Shown here: one piece after another, positions 1,417-54,980 of the stretch
Numbering within the stretch: position 1 is the stretch's first letter
How the letters are laid out: every line of letters starts with the position of its first letter
Assembly: GCA_964643685.1 (NCBI GenBank)
Contig: CAZXTN010000001.1
Coordinates: 1 to 64,000, forward strand
Direction: 5' to 3'
DNA length: 64,000 nt
DNA from: Candidatus Micrarchaeota archaeon
GTDB taxonomy: Archaea; B1Sed10-29; JAJRYS01
Translations under genes and position numbers: made by a program
Notes under the pieces: model-generated
Told to the model about the DNA's origin: nothing
The model's input: only the letters and a program-made list of their open reading frames with translations
The model's database searches: none

Positions 1417-3249
1417 ATGAAAAGGATTAAGATACTAAAAACATTTTTAATTTTGATAACTTTAATTCTCCCTACTCTTTCAATTGTAACCCCCTACTTC
1501 CACCATACAGAAATATTATATTATTCATCAGAAAATTACATGGATCCTTTAAATATACGTTCCGGGCTTTGTAATTCATCACAAGTTTCAACTTCAGATG
1601 CAGGGAATTGCACTCAAGTTTATTTTTATAATTCAACAGAACAGCAATGGAAGATATGGGATGTAAATACTCCTGATTCATCAAATAGCCTAACTGAATT
1701 CTTACCAGGGTATGCATATTTAATAAATGTAACAAAGGCAGGGTATATGAATGACATCACTGGCACACTTAAAATTGACCCTATTTCAGATGAAAAAGCA
1801 TGGAACACAACACAACTTGGCTGGAACTTAATGGGATGGACAGGGAATATAAATTATATGAATATCAGTGATGCTATCCCTCTTATTTATGGAAACTGGA
1901 GTAAAAACATTACAAGAGTATGGCATTATACAAACAATACTGATGTAATGGAACCATACTGGCCAGAAAACCAATCAGCACAATTCCACCCAATATCAGC
2001 AAACACAAGCGGAGAATGGACATATAATTTTGACCCTGGTTACTGGGTTTGCATTGAGAATGATTCTAACCGTGGTTATTGTGAAACTAGTGAGCCTCCT
2101 TTGATGCCTTGGCAGAATCAACGTCCGGAGTTATACAATGGGAGTGTGAATAATACGAATGCTAAAACAACAGATTCCCTAGAATTCACTGTTTATTATA
2201 AAGATGCTGACAACGACCCAGCAAACCCAATACAAGTAGTCATCGATGGAATACCATACGACATGAACCCACAAACAAACACATACGACACAGGAGTAAA
2301 AGCAACCACAGACACCAACCAAATAACAATCAAAAGCACAAGCCCAACAGCAAGCGGAGACCACTACTACTACTTCAAAGCAAACGACGGCACTGACCAC
2401 ATTTACTACGACGGAACAAACACAACAAAATACCCAAAAATACCTGTTGAAAATATGTTAATGTATCACATTAATTACTTGCCAACACCAATAATTACAA
2501 CACCAGACAACGCAAAAACAAACAAAACAATTAACTTTGACTCTTCAAACTCATTTGACGAAGACGGAACAATTACCAAATACTACTGGGACTTCGGAGA
2601 CGGAACAACAAGCACAGAACAAAACCCAACACACACATACACAAGCACAGGAAACTACACAATCACACTAACAATAACAGACAACATGAACGAAACAAAC
2701 ACAACAACAAAAAACATAGAAATAACAAACAACCAAGCGCCAACAGCAAAACTAGAATACAAAAGACTATACGGCTTAACATACCAATTCAACGCATCAA
2801 ACTCATACGACACAGACGGAGAAATAACTAATTACTACTGGGACCTCGGAGACGGAACAACCACAACACAACCAAACCCAAAACACACTTACAAAACACC
2901 AGGATACTACACAATAACACTCACAATCACAGACAACGACGAAGCAACAACCACAAAAACAACAACAATAAACACAACAATACACTTCACACCAAAAACA
3001 ACAATAACACACATACCAATAGACGACTACATACTACTACACATGAAAAAAAACTGGACAGGAACACAACCACACCCATGCACAACAACAAAAACAAAAC
3101 AAGCCATAAAACCAATTAAAACAACAAGCAAACAAAAAATAAAAACAATCAAAACAATAAAAATAATAGAAAAAGCAGATATAGAACCAGTCACTGCAAA
3201 AAAAGAAGAAAAACCTTTGACAAGAATTAAGGTAAGAAGATCAATTTAA
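1417..3249 (+). CDS. Secreted PKD-domain surface protein
   Basis: Signal peptide; GWNLMG and PGY(A)W-type motifs; two PKD repeats (YYWDFGDGT, YYWDLGDGT); Thr/Lys-rich tail. Confidence 0.8.
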   Translation: MKRIKILKTFLILITLILPTLSIVTPYFHHTEILYYSSENYMDPLNIRSGLCNSSQVSTSDAGNCTQVYFYNSTEQQWKIWDVNTPDSSNSLTEFLPGYAYLINVTKAGYMNDITGTLKIDPISDEKAWNTTQLGWNLMGWTGNINYMNISDAIPLIYGNWSKNITRVWHYTNNTDVMEPYWPENQSAQFHPISANTSGEWTYNFDPGYWVCIENDSNRGYCETSEPPLMPWQNQRPELYNGSVNNTNAKTTDSLEFTVYYKDADNDPANPIQVVIDGIPYDMNPQTNTYDTGVKATTDTNQITIKSTSPTASGDHYYYFKANDGTDHIYYDGTNTTKYPKIPVENMLMYHINYLPTPIITTPDNAKTNKTINFDSSNSFDEDGTITKYYWDFGDGTTSTEQNPTHTYTSTGNYTITLTITDNMNETNTTTKNIEITNNQAPTAKLEYKRLYGLTYQFNASNSYDTDGEITNYYWDLGDGTTTTQPNPKHTYKTPGYYTITLTITDNDEATTTKTTTINTTIHFTPKTTITHIPIDDYILLHMKKNWTGTQPHPCTTTKTKQAIKPIKTTSKQKIKTIKTIKIIEKADIEPVTAKKEEKPLTRIKVRRSI

Positions 3250-9897: not shown

Positions 9898-10236
9898 TTG
9901 ATGGCTCAGTTGAAAAAAGTTGATATTAAGGGAAATTCTCATTACGCTGAGTTTAAGCTTTCAAATGAAGAATTCAGTTCTTTGCAGAATGTTAAAAATG
10001 TCTTGATTGTTCCCCTGCATCCGAAAAGTTTCAACGAAGAATTGACAACAGGGAAGCTTGGGACAAGCTTTAGGATAATGCTTCCTAAAAGAACTCTTGA
10101 GAGGTATAACATAACTGAATTGCCTAAAAAGGCTCTTTCTAAATTTTTCAAAATAGGGAAGCAGAATTTTTTAATATCTTGTTTGAACAAATCGCCTTTA
10201 AACATACCTAGGTTTATGGAGGAGAGGAAAAAATGA
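9898..10236 (+). CDS. Hypothetical protein, possible AbrB-like swapped-hairpin regulator
   Basis: GKLGTSFRIMLPK..L resembles AbrB/MazE motif; ATGA-coupled to KaiC gene. Confidence 0.5.
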   Translation: MMAQLKKVDIKGNSHYAEFKLSNEEFSSLQNVKNVLIVPLHPKSFNEELTTGKLGTSFRIMLPKRTLERYNITELPKKALSKFFKIGKQNFLISCLNKSPLNIPRFMEERKK

Positions 10237-10901
10237 TAACAACTGGAATTAAATTGCTTGATAAAAAATTGAAAGGAGGATTGCCTGAAAACACTGTCGT
10301 GCTGCTGTCAGGTGGCCCTGGAACAGGTAAGACTTTATTTTCTTTGAATTACTTGAACGAAGGTTTGAAAAACAAGGAAAGATGCGTTTACGTGTCATTA
10401 AATGAAAACAAAGAAGAGTTAATAAGAGCAACAAAAGGAATTGAATCATTGAAGGAAATGAGCAAACAGCTTGGGAAAAAATTTTCAATAGAGTCAATTG
10501 AACTCGGGCAAATGATTGACTTGGATTACTTTGTCGACTTGTTTGATTCTTATCCTAAAGTAGATAGAGTGGCAATTGACAATGTTAACAAAATGCTTAT
10601 GTTTGCAGAGGATAAGAAGGAATTCAGGAAGCAGTTAAACAAGTTAATTAAAATCTTGAAAAGAAAAGCAAAAAGCACTTTGTTGATATGCGAAACAGTT
10701 GACCATGAGCTTGACACTGGAAACGGCGAGGCATATGAATGCGACGGAGTTATTAACATCAAGTTCATTGAAGTTGAAGAAAAGCCAAAAAGAATGATTG
10801 CAGTTTACAAAATGAGATACACTGACTTTGAAGAAAGAGTGCAGTATGAATTGAAGTTGAACAAGAAAGGGTTTAAGATGACTGAGGCGCATCTTATTTG
10901 A
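10233..10901 (+). CDS. KaiC/RAD55-family single-domain ATPase
   Basis: TGI..LD..L.GG; Walker A GGPGTGKT; Walker B VAID; DGVI; KMR finger. Confidence 0.9.
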   Translation: MITTGIKLLDKKLKGGLPENTVVLLSGGPGTGKTLFSLNYLNEGLKNKERCVYVSLNENKEELIRATKGIESLKEMSKQLGKKFSIESIELGQMIDLDYFVDLFDSYPKVDRVAIDNVNKMLMFAEDKKEFRKQLNKLIKILKRKAKSTLLICETVDHELDTGNGEAYECDGVINIKFIEVEEKPKRMIAVYKMRYTDFEERVQYELKLNKKGFKMTEAHLI

Positions 10902-10922
10902 TTTGATAAGTGTTTATAATTT

Positions 10923-11933
10923 ATGAAATTATCTTATCTTTTTTATAAAGGAATCCTTGAGACAGGGGTAGGTAGCTTAATTAACAAGTTTAAGATTCAT
11001 AGACGCAGAGACATCTTGTTTTTTGAAGAGTTAATCAGTGAGTATGTTAAAAAATGCGATGACAACAACTTAACTGAAAATTTACTTAAGATAGGTGAGG
11101 ATTGGGGAAAATTAGCTATTAAAACAATATTTCCAAAATCATTTTTTTATTTTCCATTAGAGGAAATGTATAATAAGATATTAAGAAAGGTTTGGATAAG
11201 CATTGATTTAGTTCATGATATTAAATTAGTAAAAAAGCAAAATGAAATTTTTTTAACAACAGAATATGAATCAGGTACGAGATTAATTGGAAAAAATCCT
11301 GTTTCCATAGGTTTTCATAAGGGAATGCTTGAGGGGATATTGGGAAAAAAAGTAAAATTAATTGAAGCAAAACAATCTAAAAAAAGATGCTCTTACAGAT
11401 TTAAGGTGTTAAATGAAAAAGCAGAGGAAGTGGAAGCAAAAGGTAAAAGAGAATATTTTTCTTTGAACAAGTTTAACAGGAAAGGTTTTACTACAAAAGA
11501 AGCTATCAAAAGCAAGGTAATAAGGATAAAAGACGACAAGTTATTTTTAAGGGGCAAGCGATTGCTTTTGTTTGAAAGCACTTACTTTCATTTATTTGGA
11601 ATTTATTCAAAAGGCATAGACTTATTGCCTCCTATTGCCGAGAAATTTTTCAATGAATTAGTTAACGCAGAGTCAACTGAGGATGAAAAACTAAGATTTT
11701 TAAAACACATGCTTCAGTTTATGGGCTGGGGGGAGATTAGTTTTTTAGTAACTAAAGATAAAGTGATTATGACTGTTAATCACCCAAATTATGGCTTTCA
11801 AAAAAAAGAGGATAATTGGCTTTTCTTAATAAAAATGGTTGAAGGGTTCATAAAAGCAATAAGGAAAAGGACAGTTCTTAAAAGCTACAACTATTCACAT
11901 GGAAAAGTCACAGCAGTTTATTGTAAAAAATAA
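10923..11933 (+). CDS. Tandem V4R-like ligand-binding domain protein
   Basis: Two repeats: IGEDWGK...GFHKGMLEGILG...C.YRF and LRGKRLLL...MGWG...MVEGFI. Confidence 0.6.
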   Translation: MKLSYLFYKGILETGVGSLINKFKIHRRRDILFFEELISEYVKKCDDNNLTENLLKIGEDWGKLAIKTIFPKSFFYFPLEEMYNKILRKVWISIDLVHDIKLVKKQNEIFLTTEYESGTRLIGKNPVSIGFHKGMLEGILGKKVKLIEAKQSKKRCSYRFKVLNEKAEEVEAKGKREYFSLNKFNRKGFTTKEAIKSKVIRIKDDKLFLRGKRLLLFESTYFHLFGIYSKGIDLLPPIAEKFFNELVNAESTEDEKLRFLKHMLQFMGWGEISFLVTKDKVIMTVNHPNYGFQKKEDNWLFLIKMVEGFIKAIRKRTVLKSYNYSHGKVTAVYCKK

Positions 11934-12669
11934 GAACATTTAAGATGAAAAACATCAAGCCTGAAACAAGATGAGCTTTTTCAGGTTTATTGAAAAAAAC
12001 AAGAGTAATCACAAGAAGTATGAAAAGAGAAGCAGGGGGGAAAATTTTAAAAGATAGATAAAAGGAAGCAAGCAGAAGAACAATGATGACCCATTTTGTC
12101 TTTTTAAAACCAATTGCAACCGGGATAGTTTTAATACCTGCTTCTTTATCCCCTTTGTAATCTCTTAAATCAGAGCAAATGGAAGCTGCAAGGAAGGTTG
12201 TAAAAATGAAAAATGAACTTGGCAATAAGAACCAGCCTAGATTAAACAAAGAAGCACCAAATAAAAAAATTAAAGTAATGCCAAAAGAGGTGTAAACGTT
12301 TTTTAGCAAGAAGAACCTTTTCAATCTTAAAGAGGAGTAAATCCAAGAGAGAATCACTGGAAGGGAATAAAGTAGAATGGAATGTAAGTTAAAATTGATT
12401 ATTAGAAATAAACCTAAGAAGAAAGAGAGCATAGGCCCTATTAAAAAAGTTTTGTTAATAATTAAGTCTCTTTTATTCACTTTATCCTCTTCATAATCAA
12501 AAAAATTGTTATGGGAATAACCAGCTATTCCTGCAAAAAAAGCAGCAGCAGATACAATCAACAAGTTAGAGTTAAGAGGGTTAAAAAGAAGGTAACCAAA
12601 AGCACTTACCATGCTGATATAAAACGCTATTTTTATTCTGAAAAATTTCAGTAAATTTCTAATTTTCAT
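11908..12669 (-). CDS. UbiA-family prenyltransferase
   Basis: NNFFDYEEDKVN (motif I variant), DLRDYKGD..AGIKTIP (motif II); multiple TM helices. Confidence 0.88.
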   Translation of the reverse strand: MKIRNLLKFFRIKIAFYISMVSAFGYLLFNPLNSNLLIVSAAAFFAGIAGYSHNNFFDYEEDKVNKRDLIINKTFLIGPMLSFFLGLFLIINFNLHSILLYSLPVILSWIYSSLRLKRFFLLKNVYTSFGITLIFLFGASLFNLGWFLLPSSFFIFTTFLAASICSDLRDYKGDKEAGIKTIPVAIGFKKTKWVIIVLLLASFYLSFKIFPPASLFILLVITLVFFNKPEKAHLVSGLMFFILNVLIFYNKLL

Positions 12670-13720
12670 AAAGTTTTAATACCTCCTGTTCAGTTAAATT
12701 CCTTTTTTTTCTAAGAGACTCTGTTTTTAGCTTATCAAGAAGAGGACCTAGCTCATCTTCTTTGTAAGGAATGCCATATTTTGATAACAAGTATTTCAAG
12801 TTTGATTTTCCAGAATGTTTTCCAAAAACAATTACTCTTGAATTACCAACAATAGAAGGATCAAAAGGCTCATAAATTGAAGATCCTTTAAGCAAAGCAT
12901 TAACATGGATTCCAGATTCATGAGCAAAAGCATTGCTCCCTACTATTGGTTTTTGAGGAGGAAGTGTTATACCTGCTACTTTTCCAACTTTTTCACATAA
13001 ATTTTTAATAACTTTATAATTTACATTAAGGTTTATGCCTTCAATAACTTTCAATGCAACCACTACTTCTTCTATTGCTGCATTGCCTGCTCTTTCACCA
13101 ATACCACAGAAAGTTCCGGAAAAAGCAGTTGCTCCTGATTTTATAGCCATTAAAGTATTAGCAGAGGCCATTCCAAGATCATTATGCCCATGAAATTCAA
13201 CATTAACTTTTTTAGAAATTCGTGAAATAACTTCTTTTGTTTTCCAAGGAGTTAATAACCCAGAGGTGTCACTGTAAATAAATTGAGAGACATTTTTAGA
13301 AATTTCAACTAATTCATCTAATTCTTCTAAATTAGAAGTTGAAGCTCCTTCACAAGCAAGTTCAACTTTCAAGCCAAAGTCTTTAGAATAATTTATTAAA
13401 TCAATAGCTTGAGAGGGATTTTTTAAAATTTCCTTGAATTTATGAAATAAAGCAATGCGTTTCACACCTAACTTAGCTACTTCTTCTATAAACTCCTTTT
13501 TCATAGGACAAACAGCACTTACCCTAATTCCTTCATCAGTTAACACTCTGGTTAAATCAGCTTCTTCAGCTGAAACAGAAGGCATAAGACGAATGTAATC
13601 CACCCCAAAATCACTTATCTCTTCAGCTAATTTTAACTTCTCATTAAAACTAAAAACCAATCCAGGCATCTGCTCTCCGTCTCTAAGAGTCTCATCAAAA
13701 ATTTGCAAATTCATAATCAA
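12659..13720 (-). CDS. Homocitrate/isopropylmalate synthase-family (DRE-TIM) acyltransferase without regulatory domain
   Basis: DETLRDGEQ, HGHNDLG, GIGERAGN, HESGIH, GKHSG; 353 aa. Confidence 0.88.
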   Translation of the reverse strand: MIMNLQIFDETLRDGEQMPGLVFSFNEKLKLAEEISDFGVDYIRLMPSVSAEEADLTRVLTDEGIRVSAVCPMKKEFIEEVAKLGVKRIALFHKFKEILKNPSQAIDLINYSKDFGLKVELACEGASTSNLEELDELVEISKNVSQFIYSDTSGLLTPWKTKEVISRISKKVNVEFHGHNDLGMASANTLMAIKSGATAFSGTFCGIGERAGNAAIEEVVVALKVIEGINLNVNYKVIKNLCEKVGKVAGITLPPQKPIVGSNAFAHESGIHVNALLKGSSIYEPFDPSIVGNSRVIVFGKHSGKSNLKYLLSKYGIPYKEDELGPLLDKLKTESLRKKRNLTEQEVLKLYEN

Positions 13721-13844
13721 AACAACTTAAAATGTATTTAAATAACTAACTAAAATTTAAATAATTGTATAAAATAGCTAAATTGGCAGTTAAAAAGCAT
13801 AAATAAATGTTAATTTTATAAGAGCAGCAAGAGTTTAGAACAAT

Positions 13845-14465
13845 ATGAGTTTATTAGTTGACATGAAAAATTTCATTAGCACTGGGCTTCGCTATGAAGG
13901 TGCTTATTTAATAAGAGGAGAGCCTGGGACAGGCAAAACTACTTTTTGCTTGACAGCTGCTTCTGAGTGGGAGAAAGAGAAGAAGAAAGTGATTTTTTCA
14001 ACAAAACACGCAAAAGATGAAATTGAAGAGAAAATAAAAAACTATGGGGAAATGAAGAATGTTAAGGTAATTACAATAAATCCTCTTGAAACAAGAAACT
14101 TGACAATGATTAGCCATAAAATAGCAGATGAAATGGAAAAAATGAGCAAAGGAGATTTGATTATTATTGATTCCTTGTCTTCTTTTCTTTTAAGCAATGA
14201 AGCAAAGCAAGTTGCCAAGTTTATACAGACGCAAGTAGCGCGTGTAAGAGCAAAAGAGATTACAATGCTGATGACAGTAGAGGAAGGAGTTAATGAAAAA
14301 CAAGTAATTGACCTTGTTTCATACTTCACTGACGCAATTTTTGAATTAAAAGTAGAAGAAAATAAGAGATTGTTTAGGGTTTACATGTGCAAGTTTGACA
14401 GCAACAAGCTGACTTGGAACCAATACAAGGTAACAAATAAAGGATTTAAATTTTTAAACAATTAA
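13845..14465 (+). CDS. KaiC/RAD55-family ATPase, partly degenerate
   Basis: GEPGTGKT and IIIDS present; catalytic Glu region (STKH) and K-x-R finger (MCK) altered. Confidence 0.8.
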   Translation: MSLLVDMKNFISTGLRYEGAYLIRGEPGTGKTTFCLTAASEWEKEKKKVIFSTKHAKDEIEEKIKNYGEMKNVKVITINPLETRNLTMISHKIADEMEKMSKGDLIIIDSLSSFLLSNEAKQVAKFIQTQVARVRAKEITMLMTVEEGVNEKQVIDLVSYFTDAIFELKVEENKRLFRVYMCKFDSNKLTWNQYKVTNKGFKFLNN

Positions 14466-18017: not shown

Positions 18018-20675
18018 ATGAAATTAAATCAAATGGCAATGCTTTCATTGGCTGTGATTTTATTCACAACAACAGTGAGCGCATTAACAGTAACAACAGA
18101 CAAATCAATATACAACCAAGGAGATACTGTGCAGATTACAACTAAACATGCATGGACAAGGTGGGCCAGAGTAATGGTGTTAGATGCTAATACAAACAAA
18201 TCAGTATTTTATGCATCTGGATATCCAAGCAGTTGGTCAGGTTATGGAACTTACATGCACTTTAATTGGACAATCCCTACAACTGTAAAGGCTGGATATT
18301 ATTATGTAGATGGGCGTATTTCAACAAATGGAATAGGACATCATGCAATTAGTGACACTTTTTACATCAACCAAAAGCCTGTTTTAAAAGAAATGAGCGA
18401 CAAACAAGTAATAGAAGACAAGGAAGCAATTTATGAATTGACTTCAAGCGATTACTTTGGAAGCAATGTAAAAAACATGGTAGGTGACAATCATCACACT
18501 TACAAGTGTGACATGGATTACCATGGAACATTTAACCCGAAAGTAACAAAAGTTTACAGCGTATCTGCTTATGGAAAAGATGAGATAACAACTCATTTCC
18601 AATATACTTACCATGAACCAGGCACATACACTGTTGCTTGCAAAGTATATGACGCAATGGGACAAGGATCAAGCTTGAAAACATTTAAGGTAACTGTATT
18701 GAAGTACACTCCAACTACAATCAATTCAATTTCAATACCTAATTCAATTGAAGAGGGAACAACTTTGACTTTAAGCGCAGTTGTTTCACCTGGAACAGAT
18801 ACAACTTTATCCACTTACACTTGGAAGATAACAAAAGACGGAACAGTTGTTAAAACTCTTTCAGGAGAATCACCAAGTTATACCTTCGCATCATCAGGAG
18901 TTTATGTAATTAAATTAACAGTTACAGACAGCGACGGAAACACAGCTGTAAAAACAAAAGCAATCACAGTAACTGAAAAAGAACAACCAGTTGAACAAAA
19001 CTATGCTCCTTCAAACTTGGAGATTGACGGAAGCTGCAGCGAACTAAGCTGTGTTTTCAGTGGCTCAGCTGACGACTTGAACGGAGATGCTTTAACTTAC
19101 TCCTGGGAAATAAGCCAAAATGGAGAAACATTAACAACTTTAACAGGACAAGATGTTTCATATGATTTTGAACAAGCAGGAAATTACAAGCTTACATTAA
19201 CAGTAAGCGATGGAAAAGCAACTTCAACAAAAACAAGGTATGTTACAGTTGAATCAGAAGAAGAGCCAGTGACACCTTCATCAGAAAACAACGCTCCAAC
19301 ATGTGAGATTGACGTTCAATGCGCTGATTTAACATGTAGTTTCATTGCATTGAAATACGACGCAGATAAAGACCCTTTAACAACAGCATGGAACTTAGGA
19401 GATGGAACACTTTCAAACGAACCTACAGTAATGCATGACTATGCAGAGTCAGGAAATTACATTGTTACTTTAACTGTAAGCGATGGACAAGAAGAATGCA
19501 CAGACACTGCAATAGTGGAAGTAACAGGAGAATCAACACCAGTAGAACCTGAAACAAATGACGAAACTGGAATAACAATTGATGCTGGTGAACTTGTAAG
19601 GACACAAGCTAATACACCTGTTGAGTTCACAGGAACAGCTGATGACTCAGATGGTTACATCATAAGCTTTGCATGGGACTTTGATGGAGACGGAACTTAT
19701 GATGTTGAAAGCATCAACCCAATTGATGCAAACTACACTTATACAGTGCCTGGAATTTACCACGCTGTATTCAAGGTAGTTGACAATGACAGCAATGTAA
19801 AAACAATGGAAAGAGTAATAATGGTTGGTGAAGAGCAAGGAGTTCCAACAGTTAATGCTGGAGATGACTTGACAGCAGAGACCCTTGAAAACGTAAACTT
19901 CCTTGGAACAGGAGAAGACTCTGACGGATACATAGTAAAGTACGAATGGGACTTCGACTATGATTCAGCAAAAGGATTTGAAGCTGATTACACTTCAATG
20001 AGAGACGGAAGCGCTTCACACATTTATTACAAAGCAGGAGCATACACAGCTGCATTCAGAGTAACAGACAATGACGGAAAAACAGCAACTGACTACATCA
20101 CAGTTACAATAACAGGAGAAGATGTAAATGAGTCAGACATGTCAGGCATTAAGGAATACTCTTACTTTGAAATGAAAGACCTTTCAGTTGTAAGAGAAAG
20201 CAACTATGACCCAAAAACTGCTTTGACTACAGTTGAATTGAAAGTGACAAACTTGGAAAACAAGGACAGGACATTCTTAATAAGAGATATAGTCCCTAAA
20301 TCAGCAGCAACCTACTACGACCAATTCCAAGTAATTCCAAGCTATGACGTGATTTACAAAGCAGATCCTGAACTAGGATGGAATGTGACAATAGGAGCTT
20401 ATGAAACAATTGAAATAAAATACACTTTCAACAAATTCATAAGCGCAGAAAACATGTCAAAAGAATGGGAAGCTCCAACAATAATTGAACAAACAGAAGC
20501 AAATGAAACAGCAACAGAACAACCTGAACAAACAAACCAAAATGGATTAACAGGTTTGGTTATTGGAGCAATGGACGCAGCTGGAATTTCAACAACAGCA
20601 CTTGCAATAATTGTAGTTCTTGCAATTATTGTATGGAAAAAAGAAGTCATTGTTGAAAAACTAAGAAGAGAATAA
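18018..20675 (+). CDS. Large multi-PKD cell-surface protein with C-terminal membrane anchor
   Basis: Signal peptide; about six PKD-like repeats (WNLGDG, WDFDGDG, WDFD); TG..-type motif and TM helix with basic tail. Confidence 0.85.
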   Translation: MKLNQMAMLSLAVILFTTTVSALTVTTDKSIYNQGDTVQITTKHAWTRWARVMVLDANTNKSVFYASGYPSSWSGYGTYMHFNWTIPTTVKAGYYYVDGRISTNGIGHHAISDTFYINQKPVLKEMSDKQVIEDKEAIYELTSSDYFGSNVKNMVGDNHHTYKCDMDYHGTFNPKVTKVYSVSAYGKDEITTHFQYTYHEPGTYTVACKVYDAMGQGSSLKTFKVTVLKYTPTTINSISIPNSIEEGTTLTLSAVVSPGTDTTLSTYTWKITKDGTVVKTLSGESPSYTFASSGVYVIKLTVTDSDGNTAVKTKAITVTEKEQPVEQNYAPSNLEIDGSCSELSCVFSGSADDLNGDALTYSWEISQNGETLTTLTGQDVSYDFEQAGNYKLTLTVSDGKATSTKTRYVTVESEEEPVTPSSENNAPTCEIDVQCADLTCSFIALKYDADKDPLTTAWNLGDGTLSNEPTVMHDYAESGNYIVTLTVSDGQEECTDTAIVEVTGESTPVEPETNDETGITIDAGELVRTQANTPVEFTGTADDSDGYIISFAWDFDGDGTYDVESINPIDANYTYTVPGIYHAVFKVVDNDSNVKTMERVIMVGEEQGVPTVNAGDDLTAETLENVNFLGTGEDSDGYIVKYEWDFDYDSAKGFEADYTSMRDGSASHIYYKAGAYTAAFRVTDNDGKTATDYITVTITGEDVNESDMSGIKEYSYFEMKDLSVVRESNYDPKTALTTVELKVTNLENKDRTFLIRDIVPKSAATYYDQFQVIPSYDVIYKADPELGWNVTIGAYETIEIKYTFNKFISAENMSKEWEAPTIIEQTEANETATEQPEQTNQNGLTGLVIGAMDAAGISTTALAIIVVLAIIVWKKEVIVEKLRRE

Positions 20676-23885: not shown

Positions 23886-24674
23886 TTACCTTGCTAGGGA
23901 GTATACTTCGAATTCGCAGTATGAGTCTCCTACTTCCCATCCTTTTGTTTGGTTGACTGTTACTGATTCCATTCTTTTGAATTCTGCGAATGCTCCTCTT
24001 ATGAATCCTCTTGAAAAGTTTGCTGCTTTTTTTCCGAATGGGTAAGCTCCTACTGTGAATGCTTCTTCTTTTATTCTTAGAACTGTTTCTAATGTTGCTG
24101 TTTTTTTGCTTGGGTTTATTTCTTCAACAATGCCTATTTTCATTTTTAGAAGGGAGTCTTTTATTAGCTTTATTAGTTCTTGTTTGCTTGTTGGTTTTTT
24201 TTGTTTGATTATTTTTCTTGCTATTGTTTCTCCTGCTTGGGTTGCTATTCTTTCTGCTTGGAAGTCTCCGGCTATGTCGTAGGTTGAGTAGAAGAGGTAT
24301 CTTGCTACTTCAAGGGAGAATTCTTTTCCGAGTTTTTTTCTCAGCAGTGGGTCGAATGAGCCTACTTCTTCTCTTTTTCCTTCGCTTATTACTTCTTTTG
24401 AGATTATGTTTAGTTTTAGTTTTTTTCTTATGTCTTCTATTATTGAGTAGATTTCTATTCCGTTTAGCACTAGGTCGTTTTTTAGTTCTTCGAAGGAGGA
24501 GTCTGGCTTGTATACTATTAGTTTTCCGTTTGGCAGCAGTTTGAGACGTATGTCGTGTATTTTTGTTTCAAGTACTTCTTGGTTTCCTTCTGGATAATTG
24601 AAGTACTCTAACTCTTTTAATTTTTTTAAGTTTAGTTTTGTTTTCAAGTCATATACGAATGATTCTGATTTCAT
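23886..24674 (-). CDS. V4R domain-containing protein
   Basis: R..LG; AGE..A; MKIGI; F.RGFIRG; T..W..GD.YCEFEV C-terminal V4R signature. Confidence 0.75.
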   Translation of the reverse strand: MKSESFVYDLKTKLNLKKLKELEYFNYPEGNQEVLETKIHDIRLKLLPNGKLIVYKPDSSFEELKNDLVLNGIEIYSIIEDIRKKLKLNIISKEVISEGKREEVGSFDPLLRKKLGKEFSLEVARYLFYSTYDIAGDFQAERIATQAGETIARKIIKQKKPTSKQELIKLIKDSLLKMKIGIVEEINPSKKTATLETVLRIKEEAFTVGAYPFGKKAANFSRGFIRGAFAEFKRMESVTVNQTKGWEVGDSYCEFEVYSLAR

Positions 24675-24762
24675 TATCTTTTAAGCAACTCCCTTTTAAA
24701 TTTTCAAAATCTCTTCATTAGTGAAGTATGTTGGGTTGTAGAATCAAATGCCTGTTGCTTTT

Positions 24763-25443
24763 TCAAAGCATTTCTTCTGGAACTACCTCTAGTCCAATGG
24801 ATGTCATTTGAAGTGGGTAAATGCTTCTGGAGTGGTTTGTTCCTCTCATTTTTAGTATTTCAAGTGCACTTACTCTTTCGTTTCTTTTAGGAAGATTATA
24901 TAAAAGGATTACTCCATCTGCTATGAATTCTTCTAAGCCAAAACGTGCATCTTCTCTTAGTGAGTAGTCTCTTTCGCTTGTTAGGACAACTGTTGCGTCA
25001 AGTGAGCTTAGGAAGTCTAGTAGGTTGAATAGTCCTTTTCTGAATTCAAAGTTGTCTTTGAAGAATAAGCGTAGCATTGTTACTGTGTCAAGGACTACTC
25101 TTTTTACCCCTAGTTGGGTTACTGATGATTGGCAGATGTCAAGTAGGTTTTGGAAGTTGTATCTGTCAACTGATTGAACTATTAAGTTTTTGTTTTTTAC
25201 TTCTTTTTTTAAGTCCCATCCGTATGAGGATTCTAGGTCTTCTATTATCTTTTCTGGTTTTTGTTCCAGGCTGAGGAACAGGCCTTTTTCATTGTAGTCT
25301 TTTATGCCTTTGTATAAGTATTGCATGCCGAAGGTGGTTTTTCCTGTTCCTGGGCCTCCTGCTACTAGTATGTTGTGGTTTCTTGGTACTCCTCCTTGGA
25401 GCATTTCATCTAGTCCAGGTATGCCTAGTAGAATTTTTTCCAT
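24763..25443 (-). CDS. KaiC/RAD55-family single-domain ATPase (intact motifs)
   Basis: GIPGLD.ML.GG; GGPGTGKT; SLEQ; VVLD; EEFIADGVI; LKMRGT.HS. Confidence 0.92.
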   Translation of the reverse strand: MEKILLGIPGLDEMLQGGVPRNHNILVAGGPGTGKTTFGMQYLYKGIKDYNEKGLFLSLEQKPEKIIEDLESSYGWDLKKEVKNKNLIVQSVDRYNFQNLLDICQSSVTQLGVKRVVLDTVTMLRLFFKDNFEFRKGLFNLLDFLSSLDATVVLTSERDYSLREDARFGLEEFIADGVILLYNLPKRNERVSALEILKMRGTNHSRSIYPLQMTSIGLEVVPEEML

Positions 25444-25579
25444 ATTGTTTCATATAATTAATTGCAAGTTTATTAATGTTACGAATAGAGGTGTAGTATG
25501 GAGTTTTTTGTTCTTTGGTTAAAAATATAAACTTGAAGTATTTAATAAGAGATTAGGCAATTGTTTTAGAAGAGGAGAG

Positions 25580-26233
25580 GTGTTTTGGTTGATTAAAACT
25601 GGTCTTCGTTTTTTTGATAAGAATAATGGATTTTCGGAGAATGAAAAGGTGTTGGTGGAGGGCCCTACTGGTATTGGTAAAAAGATGCTTGTTTATTATT
25701 TTATAAATAATTGGATTAGGAAGAAGAAGAATGTTATTTTGATAAATGCGGATGGGACAGATGAGAGGATAAGAAGAATTTTTAAGAGGTATTTTAAGAC
25801 AGATGTTTTGGATTATCCTAATTTTATAATTGTAAATGCATATGAGACAAAAATGGATTTGAATACAATAAAGAAAATAATTAAGGGAATAAAGCTTAAG
25901 GACGTTGTGGTTGTATTTGATTCTCTTACTGGTTATTTTTTCAATACTGAGAAGACTTACTTGTATAAGCGAAAATCAAAGCAGAAGGAAAAAGAAGCGA
26001 TTAAACAATTAATTAACTTTTGTAAGAAATGCAGGCATTTGTTTATTTTAATTGCTAATAATGATTTGATAAGCGAAGATGCTTTGAAGTTGCTTAGGAA
26101 GAATGCCACGACAATTATTAAAATGGATTTTGAAGATGAGAAAGGAAGGTTAAGAAGGAAAATGAATTTGAAAAAAGGGGCAAAGAAGTTTGATGCAAAT
26201 TTTTTAATCACTTATTTAGGTATTAAAATTTAA
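25580..26233 (+). CDS. Degenerate KaiC/RAD55-like protein
   Basis: TGL..FD..GF; Walker A GPTGIGKK (Thr lost); VVFDSL; no KMR finger. Confidence 0.7.
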   Translation: MFWLIKTGLRFFDKNNGFSENEKVLVEGPTGIGKKMLVYYFINNWIRKKKNVILINADGTDERIRRIFKRYFKTDVLDYPNFIIVNAYETKMDLNTIKKIIKGIKLKDVVVVFDSLTGYFFNTEKTYLYKRKSKQKEKEAIKQLINFCKKCRHLFILIANNDLISEDALKLLRKNATTIIKMDFEDEKGRLRRKMNLKKGAKKFDANFLITYLGIKI

Positions 26234-26252
26234 AGAAGCGGGGAAGTGAAAG

Positions 26253-26987
26253 ATGATAAGAAGCAATAGTTTTGAAAAGGTGCAGAGGGTAAAAACAGGG
26301 GTCCCTGGCTTGGATTTTTTACTGCAAGGAGGCGTGCCTAGGTCAGCTAATGTGCTTTTGATGGGTGCTCCTGGTTCTGGCAAGACTACTTTGTCACGGC
26401 AGATTGTTTATAACAGTTTGAAGAGGGGGATGAAAGTGATTTATATTACTACTTCTGAACCTCCTTCTAATATTAAGAAGCAGATGGATGTAATGGGTTG
26501 GCCTATACAAAAGGAGGATAAGATTATTTTCATTGATTGTTACTCTTGGAGAATAAGCAATACCCAGAGAGAAGATGCAAAGTATCAGTTGTCAAATATT
26601 AACAGGTTGAATGAGCTTGATCAGTTGTTTAGGAAGGCTCTTGAGGAAATTAAAATGAACAAGGATGGCATTGTTATTTTTGATTCTTTATCTGATCTTC
26701 TTCTTCACACTGAAGAAAAGTCAGTTTTTAAGTTAGTGCAGTTGATAACAGGAAGAATAAAAGCTGTTGAATCAAACGGCATTTTTTTAATTGAAAGCGG
26801 AATACATGATGAGAGGCAAGTGGCTACTATTAATTACATAATGGATGGAACAATTGAAATGAGGATATATGAAGATAGGAGGCAGATGAGAATAAAGAGA
26901 ATGACTGACACTGTCCATCCTCTTCAATGGATTGATTTTGAAATCAAGAAAGGAGTAGAGCTTGAGGTTAAGAATTTTTTCAAATAA
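26253..26987 (+). CDS. KaiC/RAD55-family ATPase
   Basis: TGVPGLD.LL.GG; GAPGSGKT; IDCYSW; VIFDSLS; DGTI. Confidence 0.9.
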   Translation: MIRSNSFEKVQRVKTGVPGLDFLLQGGVPRSANVLLMGAPGSGKTTLSRQIVYNSLKRGMKVIYITTSEPPSNIKKQMDVMGWPIQKEDKIIFIDCYSWRISNTQREDAKYQLSNINRLNELDQLFRKALEEIKMNKDGIVIFDSLSDLLLHTEEKSVFKLVQLITGRIKAVESNGIFLIESGIHDERQVATINYIMDGTIEMRIYEDRRQMRIKRMTDTVHPLQWIDFEIKKGVELEVKNFFK

Positions 26988-33295: not shown

Positions 33296-35710
33296 TTGAT
33301 GCGTAAGTTTTTGAAAAAAAATCAAGTTGAAGTTTTAATTGTTTTAACTTTGTTTTTGCTTGCTTTTGGAATAAGGACTATTCCAATGGATAAGTTTCCT
33401 AATATTTACGGGTTTGATTCTTTCTGGGCAGCTAGGATGACTAAGTACATGCTTGATGGTAATCACCCAGGGTGGCCTTTTACAGCAATAAAAGATAAGG
33501 TGACTGATTATCCTTGGGGGAGGTCTGGTTTAAGGCCAGTTGAACTTGGCTGGTGGAGCATAAACGCAGTGTTATACAAGTTACTTGGCGGAGGAGTTCC
33601 CTGGAATTATGACTTGTTTGGAAAAATAGCTTCTTGGACAACAGTTATTTTTGCTTCTCTTGCAATACCTGCGATTTACTTGTTTGGAAAAGAAGCATAT
33701 AACAGAGTAACTGGGCTTGCTTCTGCTCTTTTCTTGGCAGTTTCAGGAAATCATTTGTTTTATTCTATTTACGGGCATGCGGAAAACGACGGGCTTGGAT
33801 TATCCCTTTTCTTCTTTTCACTATACTCATTTGTAATGGCAGTGAAAAAAAAGAAGAGAAGGTACTTGTTGCTTAATGCTTTTTTCTTCTCATGGCTTTC
33901 TTTAGTATGGCAGTCATACACTGTTGTAACTTTTCTAGTCACTGGAACAATTGGCTTGTACTTCATAATTTATGCTTTAATGAAAAAAATGAACAATTAC
34001 AAGGATTCAGAAAAAAGAAAAGAGCATAGGAAGTGGATGATCTATTCCTTGATTTCAATCATTCCTTCAATAGTAATAAATTACTTATTCATAGGAAAAA
34101 CAGGAATGGGCGCAAGAGCCATACTTCCTTTGTCATTAGCAATAATCATTCCATTAATAATTGAAAAAACAATATCAGGAGAAAAGATGAAATTTAAAAA
34201 AGAAGATTTTTATGCAAAAACAGGTGGAATTGCAGCAATTTTGTTGTTCCTTGGATTAATTTTTTACGGAACAGCAATGGTAACATCACCTATAAGGTAC
34301 GTAGGGTTCAACTTTTTAGGAGAACAAAGGCAAGCACTGCCTTATGAAAAAAGAATGCTTTCAACAATAGCAGAGCAAAACCCAGTGCCAGGGAACAGTT
34401 TCTTTGAGAGAATAAGCAACTTGTCAGGCAATTTCGGTTTAATAATATGGCTGTCAATCGCATCAATATTAGCAATAATTATAAAATTATTTACAATTCC
34501 TTTCATAAAAAAAGACTTTACATATGAATGGGATTTGCTTGCATTAGCTTTCTTAACTTTTTCAATATACACTTTGACAGAAAAAGCAATAACAATGTTC
34601 TTCCTAGCAGGGGTAATTGCTTTCGGAGCAGGTTACTTCTATGGATTATTATGGAAAACAATAGATTATTACAAGCATAAGTTGAAAAACAAGGAAAAAA
34701 CACTGAAAGCAGCCTTACTACTATTATTACTTGTTTCATTTTCAGCTTACAGCGTCCCTGCAATACAGCAAGTAAACAACATGGCTTACGACATGCCGCA
34801 GGAATGGATGCAGACATACGATTTCCTAAACACTTTGCCAAAAGGAAGCGTGATAACAGCTTGGTGGGATTACGGACACTGGATGAATTACTTCAGCGGA
34901 GACAACATATACACAACACAAGACAACATACAAGACAGAAAAGATATAATATACACAGTCGCCTCTTCATTTACGCATGTAACAAACTGCCAGCAAGATC
35001 AAACAGGAGTGATAACCTGCGACTCCACGCCACAAGCACTTGAAAAACAAGAAATAGAATCACTGTCCCTCCTAAAACCGCTTAAAACAAATTACATATT
35101 AATAGACAAAGAAATAGTAGCAGGAAGCACAGGTGGAAAATACGGAGCATTAAAAAGAATAGCTGGAATAGAAACAGGATGCATACAAGAATTCACATGC
35201 AAACAGCAAGAAGATACAGTTGCATGCAATTTAGGTTACATAAACACTCAAAATGGACAGGAGGGAATTTACTTCAAATTCACGCAACAGCAATGGAATC
35301 AATTGACAAACATAACCTGGCCAGGAGTAACAATAAACATGCCAGTAATAACAAGCAGTGGACAGGCAGTTGGGCAAATACCAACAAGGTACTTTGCTAA
35401 AAACATGAACTACAGCGGAAAAACACTTTACGCAACAGCCTTAAACTGCGGAAATTACTTCTTCAGCGAACATGGTGCAAACCCAAACGCGCCTGCTCTC
35501 TATTCATTTGAAATGAGACTGTTCTTCAACGACCCTTCATTAAAACACGTGACAAAAGTTTATGATGACGGGTGGAACGTGATATACCAAGTAAACTGGA
35601 ATGGAATACCCGACCCTGAAAAATACGACACTTGGACAAAAACACACTCTGTGCTTTGTACAGGAGCAGCTGAAAAAATCTGCGAACAAAACCCAATTCA
35701 AACAAATTAA
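33296..35710 (+). CDS. aglB: Oligosaccharyltransferase AglB/STT3
   Basis: GFDSFW; END; TIAE; WWDYG; DK motif; multi-TM N-terminus and soluble C-terminus. Confidence 0.92.
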   Translation: MMRKFLKKNQVEVLIVLTLFLLAFGIRTIPMDKFPNIYGFDSFWAARMTKYMLDGNHPGWPFTAIKDKVTDYPWGRSGLRPVELGWWSINAVLYKLLGGGVPWNYDLFGKIASWTTVIFASLAIPAIYLFGKEAYNRVTGLASALFLAVSGNHLFYSIYGHAENDGLGLSLFFFSLYSFVMAVKKKKRRYLLLNAFFFSWLSLVWQSYTVVTFLVTGTIGLYFIIYALMKKMNNYKDSEKRKEHRKWMIYSLISIIPSIVINYLFIGKTGMGARAILPLSLAIIIPLIIEKTISGEKMKFKKEDFYAKTGGIAAILLFLGLIFYGTAMVTSPIRYVGFNFLGEQRQALPYEKRMLSTIAEQNPVPGNSFFERISNLSGNFGLIIWLSIASILAIIIKLFTIPFIKKDFTYEWDLLALAFLTFSIYTLTEKAITMFFLAGVIAFGAGYFYGLLWKTIDYYKHKLKNKEKTLKAALLLLLLVSFSAYSVPAIQQVNNMAYDMPQEWMQTYDFLNTLPKGSVITAWWDYGHWMNYFSGDNIYTTQDNIQDRKDIIYTVASSFTHVTNCQQDQTGVITCDSTPQALEKQEIESLSLLKPLKTNYILIDKEIVAGSTGGKYGALKRIAGIETGCIQEFTCKQQEDTVACNLGYINTQNGQEGIYFKFTQQQWNQLTNITWPGVTINMPVITSSGQAVGQIPTRYFAKNMNYSGKTLYATALNCGNYFFSEHGANPNAPALYSFEMRLFFNDPSLKHVTKVYDDGWNVIYQVNWNGIPDPEKYDTWTKTHSVLCTGAAEKICEQNPIQTN

Positions 35711-35719
35711 AAAAAAAGA

Positions 35720-36757
35720 GTGCTTAAAATGTATGAGAGGATAATAATTTCAACTGGAGTGACAGCTTTAACAGTACTATTACTAACACCTAAACTAATC
35801 AATAAGTTCAAATTAATTGGTTTGATTGGAATAGACCAAGCTAAGAAAGGAAAGCCAATAGTAGCTGAGTCAGGCGGAACAGCAGTCGCAGCAGGGTTCT
35901 TCGCAGGCATAATGACTTACCTTGCAATAACAACATTCGCCATGCCAACACAAATAAACATAACAATTCTCCTCGCAGCGCTTGTAACAGTGCAAACAAT
36001 AGCTTTAATCGGATTCTTCGACGACATAATAACCAAAAAAACACTCACAAAAGACATACACGGAGACAAAAACTACAGAATAGGCTTAAGGCAAAAAACA
36101 AAAGCACTCCTCGTCCTCCCAGCAGCTATTCCATTAATGGTAATCAATGCAGGACACTCTACAATGGCAATTCCATTCATAGGCATCATCAACTTCGGCA
36201 TAATCTACCCATTAATACTAATACCCATTGGAGTACTTTGCGTAGCAAACGCAGTAAACATGCTCGCTGGACTCAACGGCTTAGAAACAGGAATGACAAC
36301 AATAGCATTGACATCAATGGGCATCTACGCTTACTTGAACAACGCAATAGAAGCAAGCATAATAGCATTCATAGGAGCAACAGCCTTCCTATCCTTCCTA
36401 TACTACAACAAATACCCAGCAAAAGTATTCCCAGGGGACACAGGAACATACCTCGCAGGAGCACTAATAGCAACAGTGACAATAACAGGAAACATGGAAA
36501 AATTCGCAATCATAATATTCACACCATGGATAATAGAAGCATTCATAAAACTCAAAACAAAATTCAAAGGAACAAGCTTCGGAAAACTAACAAAACAAGG
36601 ACACCTCAAACCAAAAAACAACAAAACAGAATCACTAACACACGTGATAATGAACAGCGGAGATTACACAGAAAAACAAGTCGTCTGGATATTCTGGCTA
36701 ATAGAAGCAGCAATAGCAACAACAGCACTCATACTATGGAATACAGGGATAATTTAA
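35720..36757 (+). CDS. UDP-GlcNAc:polyprenyl-phosphate GlcNAc-1-P transferase (MraY/AglH/Alg7 family)
   Basis: ESGG; GFFDD; NAVNMLAGLNGLE; YNKYPAKVFPGDTG; GNMEK. Confidence 0.9.
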   Translation: MLKMYERIIISTGVTALTVLLLTPKLINKFKLIGLIGIDQAKKGKPIVAESGGTAVAAGFFAGIMTYLAITTFAMPTQINITILLAALVTVQTIALIGFFDDIITKKTLTKDIHGDKNYRIGLRQKTKALLVLPAAIPLMVINAGHSTMAIPFIGIINFGIIYPLILIPIGVLCVANAVNMLAGLNGLETGMTTIALTSMGIYAYLNNAIEASIIAFIGATAFLSFLYYNKYPAKVFPGDTGTYLAGALIATVTITGNMEKFAIIIFTPWIIEAFIKLKTKFKGTSFGKLTKQGHLKPKNNKTESLTHVIMNSGDYTEKQVVWIFWLIEAAIATTALILWNTGII

Positions 36758-36771
36758 AAGGATGTTAATAA

Positions 36772-38747: not shown

Positions 38748-38811
38748 AAACCAACCTCCTAAATTATAAATTTAATGATTTTTTAAGCTTTAAAAGGATA
38801 TGCCAACCAAA

Positions 38812-39555: not shown

Positions 39556-39600
39556 AAGATCACAAACTAAGAATAATAAACAGTAGACATTAATAAATCT

Positions 39601-40503: not shown

Positions 40504-40531
40504 AACAAAAACCTATAATCTTTTCAATTAT

Positions 40532-41272: not shown

Positions 41273-41275
41273 AAT

Positions 41276-44146: not shown

Positions 44147-44241
44147 GAAAAACCAATCCCCCTTTATTCAATTCAATAAAAAGAGATACTTTAATATAAA
44201 GCTTTATTCTCTTAATTATTCATAAAAAATGGGTAAAGAAA

Positions 44242-45357: not shown

Positions 45358-45361
45358 GAAT

Positions 45362-46594: not shown

Positions 46595-46678
46595 AAAAAA
46601 CCAATAAAGAATAAAAACAAAGGAGTATATATGATTTACTAATCTAAAAATTAAACAAAAACAGAGGCAAGATAAAAA

Positions 46679-54061: not shown

Positions 54062-54073
54062 AGGTAGGCAAAA

Positions 54074-54973: not shown

Positions 54974-54980
54974 TAAAAAA

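Follow-up and report, generated by a model that had tools for sequence, protein, structure and literature searches.

KaiC-like ATPases have been proposed as the main signalling hubs of archaea, and very few of them have a known input or output. Makarova, Galperin and Koonin are said to have called them 'signal transduction hubs' in 2017, and the features attributed to these hubs are a single-domain KaiC whose gene is accompanied by those of small proteins predicted to sense signals or bind DNA, many paralogues per genome, and a degenerate 'iKaiC'-like copy nearby. In the regulators XylR, DmpR, MopR, and PoxR, which respond to aromatic compounds, a V4R-containing sensor, an AAA+ ATPase, and a helix-turn-helix (HTH) domain are joined in one chain. 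PMC2253512 reports homology between Bet3 and V4R and regards V4R domains as likely binders of hydrophobic ligands. The gene cluster described here lies at positions 9898-14465 of a stretch of 64,000 nucleotides from a Candidatus Micrarchaeota archaeon (positions 1 to 64,000 of contig CAZXTN010000001.1, assembly GCA_964643685.1; the whole stretch is called the window). It contains the genes of an AbrB/MazE-like protein (o112), a single-domain KaiC ATPase (KaiC1), a double Bet3/V4R-like protein (F336), a UbiA-type prenyltransferase (UbiA), a homocitrate synthase (HCS)-like enzyme (the synthase), and a second KaiC (KaiC2). What stays constant in the cluster is o112-KaiC1-F336 with UbiA opposite. 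Several accessory enzymes occur, among them the synthase, and the majority of the others, judged by their families, appear to act on isoprenoids. We read the cluster, which is conserved across DPANN-type archaea, as an operon for isoprenoid lipids that is coupled to a sensor or carrier module of the KaiC/AbrB/V4R-like type; we favour this reading with some hesitation and regard it as nearly as probable as its contrary.

On the plus strand, the KaiC operon begins with o112 (9898-10236, 112 residues; translation probably starts at the ATG at 9901), which is followed by KaiC1 (10233-10901, 222 residues) and F336 (10923-11933, a soluble protein of 336 residues from an unannotated family). UbiA (11908-12669) and the synthase (12659-13720, with the ATG at 13714 as the likely true start) are encoded on the minus strand and meet the KaiC operon tail to tail. 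KaiC2 (13845-14465, plus strand) is divergent from the UbiA operon, from which it is separated by an AT-rich intergenic region (13721-13844). This region, read by eye, contains several TTTAAAT/TATA-like runs and presumably holds promoters; a promoter and terminator scan with bacterial-type models was uninformative for this archaeal DNA. Neighbouring genes overlap by 4 nucleotides (o112/KaiC1), by 26 nucleotides at their 3' ends (F336/UbiA, 11908-11933), and by 11 nucleotides (synthase/UbiA, 12659-12669). Re-reading the open reading frame (ORF) coordinates placed all six genes and the three overlaps where a preliminary description of this DNA had put them. The AT-richer core seen in that description is real but modest: the GC content is 0.296 in F336, 0.308 in UbiA, and 0.325 in the synthase, which are the second, fifth, and tenth lowest values among 63 window genes (mean 0.362, standard deviation 0.032), and the GC content at third codon positions (GC3) of the synthase is 0.186 (z = -2.4). 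Equally low GC contents are found in other window genes, for example in a glycosylation island described below.

The arrangement was followed into other genomes by scanning one genome per species with a 12-sequence F336 alignment, which gave 28 loci (numbered with the prefix L) whose F336 proteins are 29-38% identical to that of the window. The scan pattern misses the window's own F336 motif and the sample of loci is therefore incomplete. The records are labelled Aenigmatarchaeota, Altiarchaeales/Altiarchaeota, Iainarchaeum, Nanoarchaeota, 'Nanohaloarchaea', Nanobdellati, and unclassified archaea, thus mostly as DPANN lineages, and one short contig is labelled Hydrothermarchaeaceae. Genes were counted by tblastn with the window proteins, keeping the best query per interval. 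KaiC1 lies directly upstream of F336 in 23 of 23 assessable loci (the other five start at F336), and o112 directly precedes KaiC1 in 21 of 21 (the other seven come without upstream DNA). UbiA is located downstream of F336 in all 24 loci that extend far enough (L003, L004, L014, and L018 end too early) and is encoded on the opposite strand in 23 of these, L011 being the exception. The synthase adjoins UbiA in 11 of the 20 loci with DNA beyond UbiA (L001, L002, L007, L008, L012, L013, L017, L019, L020, L024, and L026; eight loci end before), and by tblastn it is absent from the other nine (L006, L011, L015, L021, L022, L023, L025, L027, and L028). In 26 of 27 ORF maps F336 is followed by a gene on the opposite strand, the exception in L027 being an artefact of ORF picking (tblastn puts a radical SAM gene after F336 there). 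This following gene overlaps F336 in 21 of the 27, and between the end of o112 and the beginning of KaiC1 there is either an overlap or a gap of at most 12 nucleotides in 19 of 19 maps, counts of overlaps that may be too high because every start is that of the longest ORF. The gene before o112 serves as an internal control: 8 of 19 maps show a KaiC paralogue there, and each of the other 11 a different family. The outer neighbours of the window cluster also recur little (Nre and the AbrB-winged HTH protein together only in L001, Nre also in L014). The proteins share only about 30-38% identity, and the tree of F336 resembles a star whose end branches measure about one change per site. The arrangement has therefore survived a long divergence. 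Two of the 20 inner branches of the F336 tree are starred, and the minimum counts of five changes for the synthase and four for the radical SAM gene are soft because this tree is poorly supported. The gene-neighbourhood check that the preliminary description had asked for thus shows the linkage to be strongly conserved elsewhere, the core arrangement being kept in every assessable one of the 28 related loci.

In L023 (10001-11003), L025 (1981-2981), and L018 (9992-11011) the F336 gene is found in two pieces or ORFs, the cause being a frameshift (or pseudogene) or else a mistake in the assembly; L025 has a split radical SAM gene as well. A full-text literature search, which covered neither the KaiC survey of Makarova 2017 nor its supplementary tables, found no description of a KaiC-V4R-UbiA cluster or of the F336 family, and the survey or its tables may already list the arrangement. 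The cluster belongs to the known KaiC-hub kind, with F336 as a partner family that this search did not find described and with a conserved lipid-enzyme partner.

F336 matches no model of Pfam and NCBIfam, even at E<=10. Clustered at 50% identity, its family numbers at least 147 clusters (an exhaustive phmmer search gave 147 representatives at E<=1e-3, 92 of them at E<=1e-30), nearly all members have about 335 residues, and the two relatives with a source name among the 11 listed are called 'hypothetical protein'. The gathering score of the V4R family, PF02830, is not reached by F336, and this model is matched by one of 73 family members (E = 0.04). With these 73 sequences AlphaFold2 predicted the structure of F336 with a predicted local distance difference test (pLDDT) score of 94.9 and a predicted template modelling (pTM) score of 0.93; a single-sequence prediction reached a pLDDT of 49.5 and was not used. 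Both halves of the model contain the same order of strands and helices, so that the series occurs twice, and the fold is of the Bet3/V4R alpha/beta type as judged by its Foldseek and ESM Atlas neighbours. A Foldseek search of the PDB gave 11 matches at E<=0.001, and every one of these is a chain of the Bet3/TRAPPC3 family. The best is Bet3 6aq3_E (1.1e-4, template modelling (TM) score by target 0.53). Weaker matches include the phenol-sensor domains of MopR (5kbh, 7.1e-3) and PoxR (5frw, 9.8e-3), and also H-NOX and BcsD. In the ESM Atlas, F336 adjoins clusters with PF02830 in 12-15% of their members. In profile comparisons the N-terminal half matches the C-terminal half with E = 0.038 over 135 in-register columns, and each half matches a V4R-like protein encoded elsewhere in the window (23886-24674) with E of about 0.01. 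A PDB profile search with the F336 family alignment gave a weak match to TCA17 (E 0.014), which was taken as noise. Based on the predicted model, F336 is a double Bet3/V4R-like protein that stands outside PF02830. The 'tandem V4R' of the preliminary description accordingly holds at the level of the fold, given the two alike halves and the matches to Bet3, MopR, and PoxR, and fails at the level of family models, none of Pfam or NCBIfam being matched; the V4R-like fold together with the partnership with KaiC is supported by the model, Foldseek, the ESM Atlas, and 23 of 23 loci.

Near-invariant in the F336 family are R28, R29, Y41, W61, W91, N125, and Y158 as well as R210, E218, T220, H223, K261, and G268-W269-G270. 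Cysteines are found in at least 30% of the 73 rows only at C45 (88%) and C156 (37%), and F336 has no long hydrophobic stretch. Full-length look-alikes of about 360 residues (TM 0.74-0.75) are present in the ESM Atlas in bacterial clusters without a Pfam family. These clusters have up to 1123 members that are mostly labelled Actinomycetota, and because of them proteins of this double V4R-like build may also be common among bacteria.

With Bet3/TRAPPC3, F336 shares the alpha/beta fold, the best structural matches being 6aq3, 2pwn, 2j3w, and 7yh3. In Bet3 itself a hydrophobic channel takes up a fatty acyl chain. F336 differs from the Bet3/V4R proteins in that it fuses two domains, escapes PF02830, and is encoded next to KaiC and UbiA instead of being part of a TRAPP complex. 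Compared to XylR, DmpR, MopR, and PoxR, the same three functions are predicted here, those of a sensor fold for hydrophobic ligands, of an ATPase, and of a DNA-binding protein, and the sensor domains of MopR and PoxR are among the fold matches of F336. However, the three functions are distributed over three separate proteins, the ATPase is of the RecA/KaiC type and not a sigma-54 AAA+ protein, the DNA binder is AbrB-like and not a Fis-type HTH, and the Cys cluster is missing. Archaea are not known to have sigma-54. We propose, on the basis of the model, that F336 binds a hydrophobic ligand, either as a sensor or as a carrier. As a carrier, F336 would be a lipid chaperone like BchJ or the palmitate-binding Bet3 and would hand substrates, possibly host lipids, to UbiA and the accessory enzymes, with KaiC powering the extraction or hand-over. 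This would fit the top fold matches, which are Bet3 chains including the palmitate-bound 6aq3, the two pockets in one chain of the predicted model, and the strict pairing with a membrane prenyltransferase. In addition, some DPANN archaea are suggested to be unable to build their own lipids and may modify those of the host (PMC8407114 and PMC11868695). However, the operon also encodes the predicted AbrB-like DNA binder, which speaks for gene regulation, the mevalonate-pathway and prenyl-diphosphate synthase genes in some loci imply de novo synthesis, and the cluster contains no transporter. A role of F336 as such a chaperone is therefore regarded as unlikely.

KaiC1 belongs to PF06745 (128 bits against a cut-off of 26.6, E = 4.8e-37) and is a single domain with intact Walker A and Walker B motifs and an intact glutamate after strand 2 (E58). 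G30, G32, K33, T34, E58, and D116 are invariant in 21 orthologues, and the PDB profile matches are KaiC and the archaeal single-domain proteins SSO2452, PH0186, and PH0284. With its 222 residues KaiC1 is not a circadian double-domain KaiC, which has about 500 residues, and the corresponding models score far too low (TIGR02655 52.7 bits against 546, NF006799 90.5 bits against 408). KaiC2 (PF06745, 46.2 bits against the cut-off of 26.6) has kept Walker A and B and carries a His at the position of the catalytic Glu; hhalign aligned it to the KaiC1 profile with 93.7% probability and placed 'SLNE' against 'STKH'. That KaiC2 is degenerate, as had been noted before, is thus supported, since the glutamate replaced by the His is the one invariant in the 21 KaiC1 orthologues. 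A KaiC2 orthologue is found at the same place in L001 (31% identity), and the next ORF past the UbiA operon is of the KaiC family in at least 10 loci. The orthologues of o112, a small soluble protein, share the conserved motif LTTGKLGNSNRIMLPKK. PF04014 (MazE/AbrB) is matched by 6 of 20 of them (best E 0.0014), the window copy does not match this model, and a PDB profile search with o112 gave no match. The earlier label 'AbrB-like' is therefore weak, standing for part of the orthologues and not for the window copy, and o112 is probably an AbrB/MazE-type swapped-hairpin DNA binder as far as the alignments tell. The module has the features of the archaeal KaiC hubs named above, a single-domain KaiC with a small predicted sensor and a DNA-binding partner, many paralogues, and a degenerate copy nearby. 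It differs from them in that the partner is F336 and that the module is tied to a UbiA operon in every assessable locus. Anti-phage systems were searched with PADLOC, which gave no system-specific match; the KaiCs show only generic P-loop matches of at most 27 bits, and the radical SAM enzyme of the relatives gives generic radical SAM matches to pVip.

UbiA is a member of the UbiA superfamily (PF01040, 92.1 bits against a cut-off of 34.2) with two Asp-rich motifs and the character of a polytopic membrane protein, its hydrophobic stretches spanning residues 69-250. N54, D58, E61, D62, D167, and D174 of the Asp-rich motifs and the central YS..K..K motif are invariant in 24 sequences. The UbiAs of the cluster group together and apart from a second UbiA of L007 and L013. 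The NCBIfam model PRK12884 ('prenyltransferase') is matched by 23 of the 24 members (best E 3.2e-23), the digeranylgeranylglyceryl phosphate synthase (DGGGPS) model PRK12882 by 22, and the ChlG/BchG models by 20-21. In the PDB, only chlorophyll synthases match at E<=1 (E = 1e-3). Word-sharing homologues in a set of 5.8 billion proteins number only 17 including the window protein, and their few names are automatic. These results suggest that UbiA is a divergent member of the DGGGPS/chlorophyll-synthase sector. It resembles DGGGPS in the membrane UbiA fold, in both Asp-rich motifs, in its nearest NCBIfam models, and in the isoprenoid genes nearby in several loci, and differs in scoring about a quarter of the curated cut-offs, in having no DGGGPS structure match at E<=1, and in its pairing with a synthase or a radical SAM enzyme, neither of which is known to us to accompany DGGGPS.

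UbiA may also simply be the fast-evolving DGGGPS of these archaea. The synthase would then serve 2-oxoacid or amino-acid metabolism, and the KaiC neighbourhood would be an inherited gene order with no link to ligand sensing. The DGGGPS-type models among the best NCBIfam matches of UbiA are in line with this housekeeping role, as is one database relative that was named 'Digeranylgeranylglyceryl phosphate synthase' by its source. DGGGPS homologues are reported from all sampled archaea except three DPANN bins in PMC6431249. Furthermore, a class I/II aminotransferase is encoded in or beside the KaiC module of L007, L012, L013, and L020, all of which have the synthase, and the distance correlations between the proteins fit co-inheritance. 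However, none of the 24 UbiA orthologues reaches the DGGGPS equivalog cut-off (the window protein scores 69.3 bits against 296 with PRK12882 and 41.6 against 353 with PRK12883; best E with a DGGGPS model 3e-19), and no solved archaeal UbiA or DGGGPS structure is matched at E<=1. Family scans of the window and of the neighbours in the loci showed no geranylgeranylglyceryl phosphate synthase and no glycerol-1-phosphate dehydrogenase near UbiA, and the core arrangement has been kept in every assessable locus while the flanks were scrambled. By these model scores, the firm grouping of UbiA with DGGGPS that the preliminary description had named as speaking against its proposal is not seen. Taking both sides, we give the housekeeping explanation real weight without considering it probable.

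The genes that accompany UbiA vary between lineages. In 14 loci, though not in the window, a radical SAM/SPASM protein of about 350 residues is encoded between F336 and UbiA (for example, on the minus strand, at 8184-9239 of L024 and 10950-12101 of L015), and 7 of the 9 assessable loci carrying it are without the synthase. Its best NCBIfam models, NirJ2, GeoRSP, and AhbD, are all far under cut-off, and it matches Tes over the radical SAM core only (76 bits). A radical SAM/SPASM protein in these loci fits the lipid tail chemistry of the archaeal radical SAM lipid enzymes Tes and Gms (PMC8941075, PMC11214058, and PMC11186832). It differs from these enzymes in its length, in its NirJ2/AhbD/GeoRSP affinities, and in being found outside the window. 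A cis-prenyltransferase of the undecaprenyl diphosphate synthase (UPPS) type is located beside UbiA or between F336 and UbiA in L011, L012, and L018, and a flavoprotein/reductase resembling geranylgeranyl reductase (GGR) in L001. A second, distant UbiA is present in L007, L013, and L020, and a polyprenyl synthetase of the geranylgeranyl diphosphate (GGPP) synthase type (L011) and BacA (L025) are encoded within a few kb of UbiA. In L020 (11567-15861), genes for FMN_dh (IDI2-like), AA_kinase (IPK-like), Flavoprotein (UbiX-like), and AcnX stand beside an operon of the synthase, UbiA, and the second UbiA, a set that we take to be the archaeal mevalonate pathway. It can be noted for L020 that an HCS-like gene lies at most 5 kb from an aconitase-X gene and mevalonate-pathway-type genes. 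A tetrapyrrole pathway was also considered, with a BchJ-type V4R, a ChlG-like UbiA, and an AhbD/NirJ-like radical SAM enzyme, and rejected: the matches are far under the cut-offs and the accessory genes are isoprenoid genes.

The synthase has the architecture of its family, a DRE-TIM barrel (HMGL-like, 155.2 bits) followed by HCS_D2 (69.7 bits), and its best PDB match is the homocitrate synthase 6ktq (8.6e-49). All NCBIfam models remain below cut-off (nifV 304.7 bits against 462.9, LEU1_arch 284.4 against 484.75), and none of the equivalog cut-offs for NifV, LeuA, CimA, or LysS is reached. The regulatory domain LeuA_dimer (PF08502) is absent from the synthase, as had been seen before, and in this it is like NifV and AksA. 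Roughly the first fifty of 8000 scored candidates are short forms of about 320-400 residues with 37-47% identity, and the named ones among the top relatives are from Aenigmarchaeota or Nanoarchaeota and mislabelled 'homoaconitate hydratase'. A tree was built from 44 sequences, namely the 12 window and locus copies, 13 top database matches (every third entry or picked by name), and 19 others (mostly picked by name or by LeuA_dimer, with a few unnamed short forms). In this tree 27 rows, including all 12 UbiA-adjacent copies, lie on one side of a branch with 100/100 support, a group defined after a quick tree had been viewed. They are separated from 8 NifV-type rows (7 named and 1 unnamed), 3 methanogen-HCS rows, and 5 long LeuA_dimer rows. 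The synthase is therefore not an ordinary LeuA or AksA, which had been the other point named against the earlier proposal. The window copy has an end branch of 1.09 against a median of 0.42, and S96K, D125G, and R128T change columns that are identical in 43 of 43 other sequences. The shortening in mid-barrel that had been suspected is an in-frame deletion of 11 residues just after position 96, seen in the window copy alone. This copy still keeps 56 of 60 highly conserved columns and the motifs LRDGEQ, HGHND, GERAGNA, and HESGIH. Because family-invariant residues have been lost, the window synthase may be inactive or altered.

With NifV, AksA, LeuA, and CimA, the synthase shares the DRE-TIM barrel, HCS_D2, and the LRDGEQ, HxH, GERAGNA, and HESGIH motifs. 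It differs from them in its separate clade, its place beside UbiA, the missing aconitase and dehydrogenase partners, and, in the window, the three lost invariant residues and the missing 11 residues. A scan of 63 window ORFs turned up neither an aconitase nor an isocitrate or isopropylmalate dehydrogenase family, which confirms the absence reported before. A cofactor reading of the NifV/NifB type was rejected as there are no nitrogenase genes. Judged by tree and gene order, the synthase seems to be an accessory member of the UbiA operon from a clade specific to DPANN-type archaea.

The preliminary description had assigned a part in signalling to the synthase: together with UbiA it would make a prenylated acid or an unusual lipid, which the V4R-like protein would sense and KaiC relay, as a quorum-like or host-contact signal. 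The linkage conserved across the loci agrees with this, as do the 11-nucleotide overlap of the synthase with UbiA, the adjacency of the two in 11 loci, and the position of its clade apart from NifV-named, methanogen, and long LeuA-type sequences. A V4R-like fold would also suit small hydrophobic ligands (PMC2253512). It is hard to reconcile, however, with the nine of 20 assessable loci that have kept the rest without the synthase, UbiA being present in 24 of 24, and with a window copy that has lost three residues invariant in all 43 comparators together with 11 further residues. No exporter or secretion gene was found next to the UbiA operon in a Pfam scan of the 6 window cluster proteins and 84 neighbour proteins, the only transport-type match among the 84 being an ABC substrate-binding protein 2.7 kb from UbiA in L006. 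Release or dependence on cell density are beyond the reach of sequence. In addition, the accessory genes, which are the variable partners of UbiA, encode lipid or isoprenoid enzymes (UPPS, GGPP-synthase-type, GGR-like, BacA, and mevalonate-pathway proteins). A diffusible signal explains the cluster less well than a lipid pathway that has a sensor or carrier of its own. A secreted signal made by a dispensable and, in the window, damaged synthase with no export genes adjacent is thus very unlikely.

In the isoprenoid-lipid reading that we prefer, the plus-strand operon would provide the AbrB/MazE-like o112, the single-domain KaiC ATPase, and the double Bet3/V4R-like F336, and the minus-strand operon, placed tail to tail, the constant UbiA and the lineage-variable accessory enzymes. 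The UbiA operon would make or remodel an isoprenoid membrane lipid, of the ether type or a polyprenyl lipid, and this product is what we infer from the families of the enzymes. The ligand would be a hydrophobic prenyl substrate or product held in the pockets of F336. In contact with the KaiC ATPase and the AbrB-like DNA binder, F336 would then tune the UbiA lipid pathway, control being directed from the module to the lipid enzymes. The whole would be a three-protein archaeal counterpart of the one-chain sensors XylR, DmpR, and MopR.

Several points weigh against this reading. The two operons converge and are not co-transcribed, and the conservation of a convergent pair says less about functional coupling than membership of one operon. 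Because the search for loci started from F336, the UbiA clade is seen only together with F336, and the loci share ancestry. A KaiC gene nearby is partly to be expected in genomes with so many KaiC paralogues (118 KaiC-family ORFs in 24 of 29 sources mapped). Mantel comparisons of the protein distance matrices gave r = 0.12-0.62, values that fit plain co-inheritance and cannot separate co-evolution from shared descent. The homology of F336 to V4R is marginal by sequence (E of about 0.01-0.04 in one-to-one profile comparisons), the AbrB-like assignment of o112 is weak, and the ligand binding of F336 and the roles of the enzymes are predictions. Finally, the Cys cluster described as common to V4R, PoxR, and MopR in PMC5847659 is absent from the 73 F336 sequences. 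The isoprenoid-lipid reading could also be extended to a lipid machine of host-dependent DPANN archaea, in which a KaiC-driven F336 would pick up isoprenoid lipids or prenyl intermediates, possibly scavenged from the host, and feed UbiA, and the accessory enzymes would rebuild them into a lipid class not yet described. We consider this extension quite unlikely; if it were true, the fold that became the eukaryotic Bet3 would have a lipid-binding role in prokaryotes.

A second KaiC/V4R module is located at 23886-26987 of the window and counts in favour of the isoprenoid-lipid reading. On the minus strand, a KaiC gene (24763-25443) is followed there by the gene of the V4R-like protein mentioned above (23886-24674), which scores 27.6 bits with PF02830, under the cut-off of 31, and two more KaiC genes (25580-26233 and 26253-26987) are divergent from this pair. 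The same succession of KaiC and V4R recurs in L001 (2799-4268) and L017 (9180-10618).

The genes flanking the cluster encode NMD3, Nre, the AbrB-winged HTH protein, and a class I (Trp/Tyr-type) tRNA synthetase, and other window genes are archaeal as well (Nop5/fibrillarin, tRNA intron endonuclease, an STT3-type oligosaccharyltransferase, pilus/archaellum-type ATPases, and pyruvate:ferredoxin oxidoreductase). Two large PKD-repeat proteins (1417-3249 and 18018-20675) are presumably at the cell surface; the one of 885 residues is encoded 3.5 kb from the cluster. The glycosylation island (33296-48661) contains an STT3-type transferase, glycosyltransferases of the GT4, GT2, and GT1 types, a Polysacc_synt flippase, a UDP-GlcNAc 2-epimerase, and a HAD-PGM/PMM fusion, and several of its genes are among those with the lowest GC and GC3 of the window. 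At 62268-63980, a T2SSE-type secretion/pilus ATPase carries an N-terminal 2x[4Fe-4S] ferredoxin domain, a fusion that is not known to be common; upstream of it come a further T2SSE ATPase and two T2SSF genes (52067-56162). In L023 (4037-6640), the gene of an RNA polymerase Rpb1-domain-5 protein is broken by an intein with a LAGLIDADG endonuclease.

For the biology of the archaeal KaiC proteins, the cluster offers a concrete and widely conserved pairing of a KaiC with a candidate DNA binder, a candidate ligand binder, and a membrane enzyme, and therefore the idea of KaiC as a signalling hub becomes testable. The genes to be assayed are the F336 family with its at least 147 clusters, a separate clade of UbiA, and a separate clade of HCS-like enzymes. 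The cluster also bears on how DPANN cells with their reduced genomes obtain, make, or remodel their membrane lipids. If F336 does bind prenyl lipids, this would give a prokaryotic function to the fold that is ancestral to the eukaryotic Bet3.

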